18,167 nt of DNA from a virus (IMGVR_UViG_2671180353_000009:1-18167); one strand, 5' to 3'; counted from the stretch's first letter, positions 763 to 6,457 are shown. Notes: generated from the sequence alone by a model not told the origin. Translations and numbers: made by a program.

Positions 763-3700
763 ATGGGTAAAGGCAGCAGTAAGGGGCATACCCCGCGCGA
801 AGCGAAGGACAACCTGAAGTCCACGCAGCTGCTGAGTGTGATCGATGCCATCAGCGAAGGGCCGGTTGAAGGTCCGGTGGATGGATTAAAAAGCGTGCTG
901 CTGAACAGTACGCCAGTGCTGGACAGTGAGGGGAATACCAATATCTCCGGCGTCACGGTGGTGTTCCGGGCCGGTGAGCAGGAGCAGACACCGCCGGAGG
1001 GATTTGAATCCTCCGGCTCCGAGACGGTGCTGGGTACGGAAGTGAAATACGACACGCCGATCACCCGGACCATCACGTCGGCAAACATTGACCGACTGCG
1101 TTTTACCTTCGGCGTGCAGGCACTGGTGGAAACCACCTCAAAGGGGGACAGGAATCCGTCGGAAGTCCGCCTGCTGGTTCAGATCCAGCGTAATGGTGGC
1201 TGGGTGACGGAAAAAGACATCACCATTAAGGGCAAAACCACCTCGCAGTATCTGGCCTCGGTGGTGGTGGGTAACCTGCCGCCGCGCCCGTTCAATATCC
1301 GGATGCGCAGGATGACGCCGGACAGCACCACAGACCAGCTGCAGAACAAAACGCTCTGGTCGTCATACACCGAAATCATCGATGTGAAACAGGGCTACCC
1401 GAACACGGCACTGGTCGGCGTGCAGGTGGATTCGGAGCAGTTCGGCAGCCAGCAGGTGAGCCGTAATTATCATCTGCGCGGGCGCATTCTGCAGGTGCCG
1501 TCGAACTATAACCCGCAGACGCGGCAATACAGCGGTATCTGGGACGGAACGTTTAAACCGGCATACAGCAACAACATGGCCTGGTGTCTGTGGGATATGC
1601 TGACCCATCCGCGCTACGGCATGGGGAAACGTCTTGGTGCAGCAGATGTGGATAAATGGGCGCTGTATGTCATCGGCCAGTACTGCGACCAGTCGGTGCC
1701 GGACGGTTTTGGCGGCACGGAGCCGCGCATCACCTGTAATGCCTGGCTGACCACGCAGCGTAAGGCGTGGGATGTGCTCAGTGATTTCTGCTCGGCGATG
1801 CGCTGTATGCCGGTATGGAACGGGCAGACGCTGACGTTCGTGCAGGACCGACCATCAGATAAGGTGTGGACCTATAACCGCAGTAATGTGGTGATGCCGG
1901 ATGATGGCGCGCCGTTCCGCTACAGCTTCAGCGCCCTGAAAGACCGCCATAATGCCGTTGAGGTGAACTGGATTGACCCGGATAACGGCTGGGAGACGGC
2001 GACAGAGCTTGTGGAGGACACGCAGGCCATTGCCCGTTACGGTCGTAACGTCACGAAAATGGATGCCTTTGGCTGTACCAGCCGGGGGCAGGCGCACCGC
2101 GCCGGGCTGTGGCTGATTAAAACAGAACTGCTGGAAACGCAGACCGTGGACTTCAGCGTGGGCGCAGAAGGGCTTCGCCATGTACCGGGTGATGTTATTG
2201 AAATCTGCGATGATGACTATGCCGGTATCAGCACCGGCGGGCGCGTGCTGGCGGTGAACAGCCGGACCCGGACGCTGACGCTCGACCGTGAAATCACGCT
2301 GCCATCCTCCGGCACCACGCTGATAAGCCTGGTTGACGGAAGTGGCAATCCGGCCAGCGTGGAGGTTCAGTCCGTCACCGACGGACTTAAGGTGAAAGTG
2401 AACCGGGTTCCTGACGGCGTTGCCGGATACAGCATATGGGGGCTGAAGCTGCCGACGTTGCGCCAGCGCCTGTTCCGCTGTGTGAGTATCCGTGAGAACG
2501 ATGACGGCACGTATGCCATCACTGCCGTGCAGCATGTACCGGAGAAAGAAGCCATCGTGGATAACGGGGCGCACTTTGACGGCGACCAGAGCGGAACGGT
2601 AAACGGTGTCACGCCGCCAGCAGTGCAGCACCTGACCGCAGAAGTCACCGCAGACAGCGGTGAATACCAGGTGCTGGCGCGCTGGGACACGCCGAAGGTG
2701 GTGAAGGGTGTGAGCTTTATGCTTCGCCTGACCGTGGCAGCGGATGACGGCAGTGAGCGGCTGGTCAGCACGGCCCGGACGACGGAAACCACATACCGCT
2801 TCACGCAACTGGCGCTGGGGAATTACAGGCTGACAGTCCGGGCGGTAAATGCGTGGGGACAGCAGGGCGATCCGGCGTCGGTATCGTTCCGGATTGCCGC
2901 ACCGGCAGCGCCGTCACAGATTGAGCTGACGCCGGGCTATTTTCAGATAACCGCAACGCCACATCTTGCCGTTTATGACCCGACGGTACAGTTTGAGTTC
3001 TGGTTCTCGGAAAAGCGGATTGCGGATATCAGGCAGGTTGAAACCGCAGCCCGCTATCTTGGCTCGGCGCTGTACTGGATAGCTGCCAGTATCAATATCA
3101 AACCGGGCCATGATTATTATTTTTATATCCGCAGTGTGAATACTGTTGGCAAATCGGCATTCGTGGAGGCTGTCGGTCGGGCGAGCGATGATGCGGAAGG
3201 TTACCTGGATTTTTTCAAAGGAGAAATCGGGAAAACACATCTGGCCCAGGAGCTGTGGACGCAGATTGATAACGGTCAGCTTGCGCCGGACCTGGCTGAA
3301 ATCAGGACGTCCATTACGAATGTCAGCAATGAAATCACGCAGACCGTCAATAAAAAACTGGAAAATCAGAGTGCGGCAATCCAGCAGATACAGAAAGTTC
3401 AGGTTGATACAAATAATAACCTGAACAGCATGTGGGCCGTGAAACTGCAGCAGATGCAGGACGGACGCCTTTATATTGCGGGTATCGGTGCCGGTATTGA
3501 GAATACGCCAGCAGGAATGCAGAGTCAGGTGCTGCTGGCGGCAGACAGGATTGCGATGATTAATCCTGCGAATGGCAACACAAAGCCGATGTTTGTTGGT
3601 CAGGGCGATCAGATATTTATGAATGAAGTGTTCCTGAAATATCTGACGGCTCCCACCATTACCAGCGGCGGTAATCCTCCGGCATTTTCCCTGACACCGG

Positions 3701-4242
3701 ACGGGCGGCTGACGGCGAAAAATGCCGATATCAGCGGTAACGTGAATGCGAACTCCGGGACGCTCAACAATGTCACGATTAACGAGAACTGTCGGGTTCT
3801 GGGAAAACTGTCCGCGAACCAGATTGAAGGCGATCTCGTTAAAACAGTGGGCAAAGCTTTCCCCCGGGACTCCCGTGCACCGGAGCGGTGGCCATCAGGA
3901 ACCATTACCGTCAGGGTTTATGACGATCAGCCGTTTGACCGGCAGATTGTTATTCCGGCGGTGGCATTCAGCGGCGCTAAACATGAGAAAGAGCATACTG
4001 ATATTTACTCCTCATGCCGTCTGATAGTGCGGAAAAACGGTGCTGAAATTTATAACCGTACCGCGCTGGATAATACGCTGATTTACAGTGGTGTTATTGA
4101 TATGCCTGCCGGTCACGGTCACATGACACTGGAGTTTTCGGTGTCAGCATGGCTGGTAAATAACTGGTATCCCACAGCAAGTATCAGCGATTTGCTGGTT
4201 GTGGTGATGAAGAAAGCCACTGCAGGCATCACGATTAGCTGA
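763..4242 (+). CDS. J: Host specificity protein J (central tail fiber / tail tip)
   Basis: 1159-aa ORF; N-terminus [54 protein letters not shown] matches lambda J as recalled; GGAG about 9 nt upstream of the ATG; position between I and lom matches lambda order. Confidence 0.92.
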
Positions 4243-4260
4243 ATTTTATAACCCATATAC

Positions 4261-4288
4261 GGGCGCCAGAAATGGCGCCTTTTTTATT
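4261..4288 (+). terminator. Rho-independent terminator after J (GGGCGCC-agaaat-GGCGCC + TTTTTT)
   Basis: GC-rich hairpin followed by a T-run, read directly from the sequence. Confidence 0.7.
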
Positions 4289-4309
4289 GCAGAAAAGCGA
4301 GAGGTAATT

Positions 4310-4909
4310 ATGCGTAAAGTTTGTGCAGTCATTTTGTCCGCAGCCATCTGTCTGTCCGTATCCGGTGCGCCTGCATGGGCGTCTGAACATCAGTCCACAC
4401 TGAGCGCGGGGTATCTTCATGCCCGTACGAACGCTCCCGGCAGCGATAATCTGAACGGGATTAACGTGAAATACCGTTATGAGTTTACGGACGCGCTGGG
4501 GCTGATTACGTCCTTCAGTTATGCCAATGCTGAGGATGAGCAAAAAACGCACTACAGCGATACCCGCAGGCATGAGGATTCCGTGCGTAACCGCTGGTTC
4601 AGCGTGATGGCGGGGCCCTCTGTGCGCGTGAATGAATGGTTCAGTGCGTATGCGATGGCGGGCGTGGCTTACAGCCGTGTGTCGACTTTTTCCGGGGATT
4701 ATCTCCGCGTAACTGACAACAAGGGGAAAACGCATGATGTGCTGACCGGAAGTGATGACGGTCGCCACAGCAACACGTCTCTGGCGTGGGGGGCTGGCGT
4801 GCAGTTTAACCCGACCGAATCCGTGGCCATTGATATTGCTTATGAAGGTTCCGGCAGTGGTGACTGGCGCACTGACGGTTTCATCGTGGGTGTCGGTTAT
4901 AAGTTCTGA
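4310..4909 (+). CDS. lom: Lom outer-membrane protein (Ail/Lom/OmpX-family beta-barrel), copy 1
   Basis: 199-aa ORF with signal-peptide-like N-terminus MRKVCAVILSAAICLSVSGAPAWA and C-terminal ...GFIVGVGYKF; matches lambda Lom as recalled; GAGAGG RBS upstream. Confidence 0.9.
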   Translation: MRKVCAVILSAAICLSVSGAPAWASEHQSTLSAGYLHARTNAPGSDNLNGINVKYRYEFTDALGLITSFSYANAEDEQKTHYSDTRRHEDSVRNRWFSVMAGPSVRVNEWFSAYAMAGVAYSRVSTFSGDYLRVTDNKGKTHDVLTGSDDGRHSNTSLAWGAGVQFNPTESVAIDIAYEGSGSGDWRTDGFIVGVGYKF

Positions 4910-4955
4910 TTAGCCAGGTAACACAGTGTTATGACAGCCCGCCGTTTCAGGCAAG

Positions 4956-5738: not shown

Positions 5739-5756
5739 ATTTTATAACCCAGATAC

Positions 5757-5784
5757 GGGCACCAGAAATGGTGCCTTTTTTATT
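5757..5784 (+). terminator. Rho-independent terminator after the J fragment (GGGCACC-agaaat-GGTGCC + TTTTTT)
   Basis: Same hairpin as at 4261, with a compensatory pair of substitutions that preserves the stem. Confidence 0.7.
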
Positions 5785-5805
5785 GCAGAAAAGCGAGAGG
5801 TAATT

Positions 5806-6405
5806 ATGCGTAAAGTTTGTGCAGCCATTTTGTCCGCAGCCATCTGTCTGGCCGTATCCGGTGCGCCTGCATGGGCGTCTGAACATCAGTCCACGCTGAG
5901 CGCCGGGTATCTTCAGACCCATACTGATATGCCAGGCAGCGATGACCTGAAGGGCATTAACGTGAAATACCGTTATGAGTTTACGGACACGCTGGGGCTG
6001 ATTACGTCATTCAGTTATGCCAACGCTGAAGATGAGCAAAAAACGCATTACAGCGATACCCGCTGGCATGAGGATTCCGTGCGTAACCGCTGGTTCAGCG
6101 TGATGGCGGGGCCGTCTGTGCGCGTGAATGAATGGTTCAGCGCGTATGCGATGGCGGGCGTGGCTTACAGCCGTGTGTCGACCTTCTCCGGGGATTATCT
6201 CCGCGTAACTGACAACAAGGGGAAAACGCACGATGTGCTGACCGGAAGTGATGGCGGTCGCCACAGCAACACGTCTCTGGCGTGGGGGGCTGGCGTGCAG
6301 TTTAACCCGACCGAATCCGTGGCCATTGATATTGCTTATGAAGGTTCCGGCAGTGGTGACTGGCGCACTGACGGTTTCATCGTGGGTGTCGGTTATAAGT
6401 TCTGA
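5806..6405 (+). CDS. lom: Lom outer-membrane protein, copy 2 (diverged paralogue)
   Basis: 199 aa, 12 substitutions relative to copy 1; same RBS and spacing. Confidence 0.9.
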   Translation: MRKVCAAILSAAICLAVSGAPAWASEHQSTLSAGYLQTHTDMPGSDDLKGINVKYRYEFTDTLGLITSFSYANAEDEQKTHYSDTRWHEDSVRNRWFSVMAGPSVRVNEWFSAYAMAGVAYSRVSTFSGDYLRVTDNKGKTHDVLTGSDGGRHSNTSLAWGAGVQFNPTESVAIDIAYEGSGSGDWRTDGFIVGVGYKF

Positions 6406-6432
6406 TTAGCCAGGTAACACAGTGTTATGACT

Positions 6433-6457
6433 GCCCGCTGGTTCAGGCGGGCTTTTT
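6433..6457 (+). terminator. Rho-independent terminator after lom copy 2 (GCCCGC-tggttcag-GCGGGC + TTTTT)
   Basis: 6-bp GC stem, 8-nt loop, T-run; read directly. Confidence 0.7.

Follow-up and report, generated by a model that had tools for sequence, protein, structure and literature searches.

Why should one lambda-type tail region carry the 3' end of the tail tip gene J and the neighboring gene lom twice? The window analyzed here (18,167 nt, IMGVR_UViG_2671180353_000009) is the entire draft contig CXEZ01000092.1, from assembly GCA_001248785.1. An earlier note on it described an old tandem duplication that had diverged in place, with exchange between two related prophage alleles as a second idea and an assembly artifact still to be excluded. 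Judging from sequence comparisons, we consider it very probable that the structure is a scaffolding or gap-closing chimera of two prophages, so it is probably not a real feature of the genome. The features on which this reading is based are collected in Table 1.

Table 1. Features of the window, with strand and supporting evidence
Feature	Coordinates	Strand	Evidence
Piece X, prophage A left part (tail assembly gene I, J, lom, first 16 nt of lom terminator)	1-4952	+	100% identity over 4952 nt
J, tail tip attachment protein, prophage A allele	763-4242	+	NCBIfam lambda_TipJ, 2374.8 bits versus cutoff 1950, full length
Repeat unit 1 as first defined (J 3' end and lom, A alleles)	3458-4953	+	Base-by-base comparison
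lom copy 1 (A allele), Ail/Lom outer-membrane beta-barrel	4310-4909	+	Pfam PF06316 Ail_Lom; Ail/Lom annotation in matching RefSeq records
Truncated lom terminator (5' stem arm, loop, 3 nt of 3' arm, no T-run)	4937-4952	+	Sequence; terminator scan without a call here
Single A at junction 1	4953-4953		Equals the prophage B base before the shared run
Piece Y1, copy of sit-linked S. sonnei prophage B locus	4953-7251	+	99.91% over 2299 nt to CP010829 (L005 8485-10783)
Repeat unit 2 (J 3' end and lom, prophage B alleles)	4954-6449	+	Starts at base 1 of the 160-nt exact A/B run 3458-3617
J' fragment ORF, C-terminal 241 aa (237 aa from 5025 in the record)	5013-5738	+	lambda_TipJ positions 917-1163 only, 390 bits, below cutoff
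lom copy 2 (B allele)	5806-6405	+	ORF list; profile matches
Intact lom terminator, prophage B	6433-6457	+	Terminator scan (call at 6433-6452)
stf 5' fragment, prophage B, interrupted by IS21	6469-6780	+	76% identity to the beginning of stf_A; L004 alignment stops at 6780
IS21 left end, 428 nt, truncated istA 6882-7211	6781-7208	+	NCBIfam transpos_IS21; 99-100% to IS21 copies
First 43 nt of IS600 end	7209-7251	+	Same sequence as 18096-18138; IS600 annotated in H101, L001
Piece Y2, 77-nt inverted copy of IS21 7129-7206	7242-7318	-	Inverted-repeat match
Orphan A at junction 3	7319-7319		Templated by neither neighbor: inverted IS21 would give T, recipient G
Piece Z, prophage A right part (terminator 3' half, stf, tfa, avs2), attR/thrW fragment, flank, IS600 end	7320-18167	+	100% to L014/L015 over 7320-16325
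stf (side tail fiber), prophage A	7352-10378	+	Exact 1008-aa product in seven other genomes/contigs
IS600 end, 72 nt, at contig right end	18096-18167	+	Sequence comparison

Geometry of the J-lom repeat

A repeat search of the window returned a direct repeat with a spacing of 1496, and the base-by-base comparison of the two units gave 90 mismatches over 1496 nt and no indels (93.98% identity), which puts a figure on the scattered substitutions reported earlier. Just outside both units, identity drops to ~25%. The ORF list shows the same 1496 offset between J and J' and between the two lom genes, so the recurrence of the J stop, lom start, and lom stop that the earlier note had read from the sequence is borne out, as is its estimate of protein identity, 94% both for lom (187/199) and for the J C terminus (245/260). 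The J-lom repeat is far above chance expectation. The anomaly reaches past the repeat to 7319, adding the stf 5' fragment, the IS21 left end, the IS600 end, and a palindrome.

Both 199-aa lom products belong to the Ail/Lom class, with matches to PF06316 and PF13505, and both match the NCBIfam Rck and OmpX models below cutoff. From its partial lambda_TipJ match, we regard the ORF between them as a fragment of J and not as a gene.

The note was also right, as a description of the sequence, in placing the junction within the lom terminator and copy 1 without its T-run. Copy 1 retains GCCCGCCGTTTCAGGC, with the remaining 3' stem arm and T-run gone, and the terminator scan found an intact terminator solely after lom copy 2 (6433-6452). 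The intact prophage A terminator reads GACAGCCCGCCGTTTCAGGCGGGCTTTTTTGTGG, and the lom terminator of Escherichia coli O25:H16 F5505-C1 (NZ_CP024257) is likewise intact (GCCCGCCGTTTCAGGCGGGCTTTTTT).

Two prophages within one contig

Piece X is identical over its whole length to F5505-C1 (L003 3002-7953) and to L014/L015/L018, and an uninterrupted J-lom-stf-tfa-avs2 prophage of E. coli (CP024257, LR883012) matches both 1-4952 and 7320-16325 at 100% identity. This lambda-type thrW prophage (NZ_CP024257, LR883012) has the same gene order and sequence, with avs2 downstream of tfa; its J 3' end and lom are each present once and its terminator is intact, whereas the window has 2367 extra nt (4953-7319) between the terminator halves. 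In all seven genomes or contigs coding for the identical 1008-aa stf product, lom lies directly upstream of stf. ARAGORN found no complete tRNA in the window, and a tRNA-Thr annotation beneath the matching E. coli sequence suggests that a remnant of thrW is present. The thrW flank and IS600 junction stretch on the prophage A side is 99.95% identical to the IS-rich, Shigella sonnei-like complete genomes L037/L038, in which the thrW site is empty.

The inserted piece Y1 comprises 785 nt of the J 3' end, lom, the stf 5' fragment, the IS21 left end, and the start of IS600. The sit-linked locus of CP010829 and of eight additional contigs (4.8-Mb or large) is 99.83-99.91% identical to 4953-7251, which places unit 2 at another locus. 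This source of the sequence through 7251 is an S. sonnei prophage remnant with the order J-lom-stf'::IS21::IS600, in which a full-length J precedes the segment and a complete IS600 and then the rest of IS21 follow; the window, compared with it, starts abruptly at a run shared with prophage A and ends 43 nt into IS600 with a fold-back. The stf' ORF runs into IS21 with its stop at 6795, and its 108-aa product is also found in S. sonnei CP010829 and in sibling drafts. The alignments of L050/L051 begin at 6781, the IS21 left end. The only two mismatches of Y1, at 6330-6331, differ from all B references, and both carry the A allele.

Since unit 1 (100%) and unit 2 (99.9%) match separate loci, the 6% divergence reflects how far two paralogous prophages differ and is not a measure of age. 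The involvement of two related prophage alleles is thus borne out, with the units matching prophages A and B, respectively, while an old diverged duplication is not supported: unit 1 and its flanks are those of an uninterrupted prophage, and unit 2 derives from a different locus, the finding that the earlier note itself had named as fatal to it.

Junctions and repeat edges

The insertion has three junctions, at 4952/4953, at the fold-back between Y1 and Y2, and at 7318-7320. At junction 1, the recipient would go on with G and the donor reads A; the homologous J position of prophage A, 3457, is C. The A at 4953 could thus stem from B or have been added to fill a gap of one base. Neither overlap nor microhomology is present at junctions 1 and 3. 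Y2 is joined to Y1 by an overlap of exactly 10 nt, TGTTCTTTTT, and creates a palindrome with 88-nt arms (7129-7216/7231-7318); this inverted IS21 piece is missing from all nine long or complete donor loci. The first 11 nt of piece Z (7320-7330, CCGTTTCAGGC) duplicate 4942-4952.

Among the exact runs that prophages A and B have in common, the three longest span 3458-3617 (160 nt), 4836-4935 (100 nt), and 1-98 (98 nt). Unit 2 begins at base 1 of the 160-nt run and the contig at base 1 of the 98-nt run, each with a mismatch at the base preceding the run, and relative to the 100-nt run, piece X ends 17 nt after it and piece Z starts 6 nt after it. The other ends fall just inside IS600, at 43 nt for the B piece, 72 nt for the right end of the contig, and 51 nt for the sibling contig L050. 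The breakpoints therefore lie at the edges of repeats that reads cannot resolve, as an assembly chimera predicts.

Occurrence elsewhere and errors in sibling drafts

Searches for the lom/J junction in 5426 complete E. coli genomes, in 50,697 phage records, among the GTDB species representatives, and in IMG/VR gave no hit; these collections contain few Shigella genomes, so that the uniqueness of the junction is weaker evidence than it appears. A search for the 241-aa J' ORF elsewhere gave no match, and the 237-aa J' product is on record only in this contig. Comparing relatives for one-copy and two-copy states, a check proposed in the earlier note, likewise spoke against a duplication: the two-copy state occurred in 0/5426 E. 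coli genomes, and all seven A-type and nine B-type loci have the simple arrangement.

Four sibling drafts belonging to the same accession series, CXFP, CXFS, CXFO, and CXCD (L006-L009), each contain a different spurious J-internal duplication in comparison with a complete genome. These duplications are joined via single Ns or, in L008, by an overlap of exactly 10 nt (GCGCTGTATG), the same length as in the fold-back join of the window. Ten nucleotides is the default minimum merge overlap of GapFiller.

Origin of the composite structure

An assembly artifact, which the earlier note had flagged as needing exclusion, is now the best-supported explanation, given the boundaries at repeat edges and the errors in sibling drafts. 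The source would be an IS-rich short-read draft, most likely of S. sonnei and produced by a Velvet/SSPACE/GapFiller-type pipeline, from a genome carrying two related lambdoid tail regions: prophage A at thrW (J-lom-stf-tfa-avs2) and the resident remnant B adjoining sitABCD (J-lom-stf'::IS21::IS600). S. sonnei is favored by the IS content, by the donor locus in CP010829, and by the genomes with an empty thrW site. The assembly graph would have broken at the long exact A/B runs and at the starts of multicopy IS elements, and a scaffolder or gap closer would then have set the B piece, from the 160-nt shared run in J to 43 nt into IS600, between the two halves of prophage A, joining it by fillers of one base and by an overlap merge of 10 nt. 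For the true locus, a single-copy J-lom-terminator-stf order is expected, as in every other genome. What the pieces consist of, where their boundaries lie, that the junctions are unique, and that sibling assemblies contain like errors are all observed; which pipeline was used, and in exactly what order its software steps ran, we infer.

Several features resemble the false joins made by SSPACE and GapFiller, namely, the boundaries at repeat edges, the 10-nt overlap merge, structures that vary by isolate within the same gene, and one-base fillers that stand where the siblings have single Ns. Use of that pipeline for this assembly is itself probable. A paper on the Sanger pipeline describes 299 S. 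sonnei assemblies, averaging 405 contigs ordered by size, and its authors state that SSPACE and GapFiller are greedy and able to make false joins (PMC5320598); the contig numbering (92 for 18 kb; 191-504 for 8-0.45 kb) agrees with this description. Trimming of edges and merging of extensions have also been described (PMC3446322). The A-allele bases at 6330-6331, inside a shared run, fit the reuse of one graph node. Against a chimera, the contig has no N, and the 77-nt inverted IS21 scrap, the 11-nt overlap of X and Z (which is not k-1), and the two single As are hard to derive from software steps; a simple overlap merge cannot account for junctions 1 and 3, as there is no overlap there. A real strain-specific event would, moreover, be a singleton too.

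Such a real event, which we consider unlikely, would be the insertion of a 2.37-kb copy of the resident prophage B locus into the lom terminator of an incoming prophage A by multistep template switching, passing from the terminator hairpin to J of B, folding back at the 10-nt IS21/IS600 inverted microhomology, and returning 11 nt upstream of the departure point; it would leave a second lom, a promoterless alternative J C terminus, and lom copy 1 without its terminator. Microhomology, short target duplications, and one-base fillers have been reported in template-switch rearrangements, and all three kinds occur here, as the 10-nt fold-back, the 11-nt target duplication, and a one-base filler. 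In its multijunction insertion with an inverted segment, the structure is FoSTeS/MMBIR-like; a fork could stall at the GC-rich hairpin from which the switch would depart, the contig contains no N, and the A-type bases at 6330-6331 could be gene conversion between neighboring copies. However, two of the three junctions are without microhomology, although priming-based switching needs some, and classical end joining is not known in E. coli and Shigella. The breakpoints also coincide with repeat edges of an assembly graph: a donor breakpoint at base 1 of the longest A/B run would be a coincidence of ~1e-3 and another end within 43 nt of the IS600 terminus one of a few 1e-2, whereas both are expected for graph nodes. 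In addition, structures of this kind occur in sibling assemblies, where they are plainly artifacts; short-read contigs normally break at a 2.3-kb stretch with 99.9% identity to a second locus instead of running through it; and none of the three junctions was found in any other genome searched. We give a slightly lower chance still to a correct contig in which a newly gained avs2-carrying lambdoid prophage of a Shigella strain switched templates in three steps at the lom terminator hairpin and so captured a 2.4-kb cassette from a defective resident prophage.

The exact 1496-nt register, lack of indels, and scattered substitutions are what an in situ tandem duplication of the J 3' end and lom, diverged by point mutation to 94%, would leave, yet we give it almost no credence. 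A single-copy relative should match both units equally, but L003 is 100% identical to unit 1, which is undiverged over 4952 nt, and 94% identical to unit 2. The 99.9% match of unit 2 to an existing locus includes the nonduplicated stf', IS21, and IS600, and the two-copy state is missing from the E. coli genomes. Instead of one novel tandem junction, there is a 2367-nt insertion with three, as stf_B', IS21, IS600, and inverted IS21 follow unit 2, and prophage A resumes only after the inverted piece, 11 nt upstream of where it departed. Mixing of reads from two organisms in one library, prophage A from one and S. sonnei from the other, would explain the 100% match of the A part with ETEC O25:H16 genomes and the empty thrW site in the S. 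sonnei-like L037/L038; it is nevertheless very improbable, as the A part runs unbroken, with no join signature, into the L037/L038-like thrW flank and IS600, so prophage A appears to be seated in a Shigella-like chromosome. Two other candidates were rejected. IS transposition with an 11-bp target duplication does not fit a left boundary with no IS end (the insert starts inside J) or a right boundary formed by an internal inverted IS21 piece, and the 11-nt repeat suits neither IS21 nor IS600, whose target duplications are 3-8 bp. A homologous unequal crossover between A and B is discarded because junction 1 joins the lom terminator to J without homology.

Implications of either reading

If the join is an artifact, as we think, the duplicated lom, orphan J fragment, lost terminator, and 88-nt palindrome in the public record should not be read biologically, and the terminator loss in particular would have no biological meaning. 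Drafts of IS-rich, polylysogenic genomes in this accession series repeatedly hold invented J duplications. If the structure were true, the phage would have gained another lom allele along with an alternative, silent J C-terminal (receptor-binding) module, which homologous recombination over the 160-nt shared run could move into J. It would then be a documented case in which an incoming phage received a receptor-binding cassette, through nonhomologous template switching, from a defective prophage already resident, of moderate interest for the evolution of phage host range.

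Tandem repeat and inserted stretch

A repeat search of the window returned a direct repeat with a spacing of 1496 nt, and base-by-base comparison aligned the two units without indels, at 90 mismatches (93.98% identity), with identity dropping at once to background outside both of them. Protein identity is 94% in the pair of J C termini as well as in the pair of lom products, so the repeat of the J 3' end plus lom described in the earlier note is present. The placement of its junction within the lom terminator also holds, as the first copy retains GCCCGCCGTTTCAGGC and lacks the remaining stem and the T-run, and the terminator scan called a complete terminator solely after the second copy.

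The anomaly extends past this repeat, into a stretch composed of an stf fragment and pieces of two insertion sequences. Together with the terminus of IS600 between them, the direct and inverted pieces of IS21 form a near-perfect palindrome (7129-7318; arms of 88 nt, 94% complementary, around a center of 14 nt).

Features of the repeat, the inserted stretch, and the right end of the prophage (window positions)
Feature	Positions	Remark
J	763-4242	From the ORF list
Unit 1	3458-4953	Repeat copy with prophage A alleles
lom, copy 1	4310-4909	199 aa
Unit 2	4954-6449	Repeat copy with prophage B alleles
J C-terminal ORF	5013-5738	Same 1496 offset from J
lom, copy 2	5806-6405	199 aa; same 1496 offset
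Complete lom terminator	6433-6452	After lom copy 2
stf 5' fragment	6469-6780	76% identity with the beginning of full stf (7352)
IS21 left end	6781-7208	428 nt, with truncated istA
IS600 end	7209-7251	First 43 nt; same sequence at the contig right end, 18096-18167
Inverted IS21 copy	7242-7318	77 nt, copy of 7129-7206
Extra A	7319	
3' half of lom terminator, then stf, tfa, and Avs2 defense gene	After 7319	
avs2	11500-15954	Anti-phage gene encoding a 1484-aa Avs2 (AVAST type 2); immediately follows tfa, at the prophage's right end
thrW (tRNA-Thr) 3' fragment	16325-16387	Marks the right attachment site of the prophage

Origin of the pieces

The window combines two prophages. The left part of prophage A (the J-lom-stf-tfa-avs2 prophage at thrW), positions 1-4952, is a 100% match to an uninterrupted prophage of Escherichia coli O25:H16 F5505-C1, and 7320-13600 continues the same prophage at 100%, reaching 16325 in longer loci. 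An 11-nt stretch (CCGTTTCAGGC, 4942-4952 and 7320-7330) belongs to both halves in the uninterrupted genomes, so relative to them the window contains an insertion of 2367 nt (4953-7319) within the lom terminator, whose intact form in prophage A is GACAGCCCGCCGTTTCAGGCGGGCTTTTTTGTGG. As for the one- and two-copy states of related prophages raised by the earlier note, lom is followed directly by stf in all of the other genomes and contigs with an identical stf protein (7/7) and in all ten further loci with an identical Avs2.

Most of the insertion (4953-7251) matches another locus, in Shigella sonnei CP010829, at 99.91% (2 mismatches in 2299), namely, the remnant of prophage B adjoining sitABCD, with the order J-lom-stf'::IS21::IS600, and eight further long contigs carry this locus at 99.83 to 99.91%. 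The 6% divergence of the units is thus the difference between the paralogous prophages A and B. Judged from these matches, the insertion is not a copy that diverged from the adjacent sequence, which excludes the old in situ duplication that was one reading of the earlier note. Positions at which the A and B alleles differ are concentrated in one short stretch within the C-terminal domain of J (3957-4000) and in a single patch of lom (4420-4460), which resembles normal variation, among alleles of paralogous prophages, in segments exposed at the surface.

A 311-nt query across the lom/J junction had no covering match in 5426 complete E. coli genomes or 50,697 phage records, and the 22-nt junction word was absent from the GTDB species representatives and IMG/VR, collections in which Shigella genomes are sparse. 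Among recorded proteins, the truncated J' product comes from this contig alone.

Breakpoints and explanation of the junctions

Junction 1 (4952/4953) is blunt, as the terminator and the J gene of prophage B share no microhomology there. At junction 2 the sequence folds back via an overlap of exactly 10 nt (TGTTCTTTTT), which occurs both in IS600 (nt 34-43) and in the reverse complement of IS21. Junction 3 is again blunt, and the orphan A at 7319 is templated by neither neighbor.

Between prophage A and the true prophage B, exact identity extends furthest over 3458-3617 (160 nt), followed by 4836-4935 (100 nt) and 1-98 (98 nt). Unit 2 starts exactly where the 160-nt run does, and the contig exactly where the 98-nt run does, with a mismatch at the preceding base in each case. 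The left part of prophage A ends 17 nt past the 100-nt run, and its right part (7320-18167) starts 6 nt past it. The B piece breaks off after 43 nt of IS600, much as a sibling contig (CXDO01000006) does after 51 nt. All boundaries therefore lie at the edges of repeats beyond the resolving power of short reads. We consider this pattern decisive, as an assembly graph would break precisely at those edges and nothing would steer a biological breakpoint to them.

The window is, very probably, a scaffolding or gap-closing chimera, in which a contig of the resident prophage B, with the shared J run at one end and IS600 at the other, would have been placed between the two halves of prophage A; the real locus would be expected to carry a single-copy J-lom-terminator-stf. 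The palindrome, which is missing in all nine long donor loci compared (9/9), probably belongs to the same artifact. The main rival, a genuine multistep insertion by template switching, could draw on the 10-nt microhomology, the 11-nt duplication, and a departure point within a hairpin, but it needs two junctions without homology and several improbable breakpoint coincidences, and we regard it as unlikely.

In one E. coli draft (GCA_045102575.1, locus position 8507, window position ~3480), an A-type J is cut 22 nt downstream of the unit start, also near the 160-nt conserved J stretch, and joined to unrelated early-region genes. CXDO01000006 and PDYB01000009 carry (locus positions 5900-6378) a second copy of the junction between the IS21 left end and IS600, beside the arsenic resistance operon arsR-arsB-arsC, so either the same nested junction occupies two chromosomal sites or one context is itself chimeric.

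Host chromosome and right end of the prophage

Many E. coli genomes share the order J-lom-stf-tfa-avs2, in combination with two or more different stf alleles (1008 and 1132 aa), and Avs2 scores 1689 bits on NCBIfam NF041813 (cutoff, 1000). Degenerate Ala/Ser-rich repeats lie within stf at 7739-8304 and 8599-8637 (41-nt units with 63- and 231-nt spacing, plus a 21-nt tandem), and the stf of the S. sonnei-like genome CP151357 is 21 aa shorter, suggesting that the repeat region varies in length.

ARAGORN called no complete tRNA in the window. In the IS-rich complete genomes CP049169 and CP180008 (locus positions 9350-11179) the site is empty, with proA-thrW joined directly to the equivalent of 16338-18167 at 99.95%, IS600 junction included. 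The host chromosome is thus Shigella-like, and thrW is the site at which it has taken up prophage A.

Draft assemblies of the same series

The window is the whole of contig CXEZ01000092.1 (draft assembly GCA_001248785.1), whose right end stops 72 nt into IS600. From the contig numbering and accession series, we infer that it came from the Sanger Velvet/SSPACE/GapFiller pipeline, which they fit. The paper on that pipeline reports, over 299 S. sonnei assemblies, an average of 405 contigs sorted by size, and its authors describe SSPACE and GapFiller as greedy, with false joins possible (PMC5320598).

Four drafts of the same accession series (CXFP01000191, CXFS01000212, CXFO01000210, and CXCD01000247) cover the same prophage B locus and show a fault of the same kind, as each has a different spurious tandem duplication within J compared with the complete genome. 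Their joins are single Ns or, in CXFO01000210, an overlap of exactly 10 nt (GCGCTGTATG), giving a spurious 140-nt repeat. These drafts also contain mosaic lom and terminator alleles. In the window, unit 2 departs from every prophage B reference only at 6330-6331, within a shared run, where it has the A bases, as reuse of one graph node would give. Ten nucleotides is what we take to be the default minimum merge overlap of GapFiller. This program is described as trimming gap edges and merging the left and right extensions (PMC3446322). Public records of this accession series are unreliable across the tail genes of poly-lysogens.
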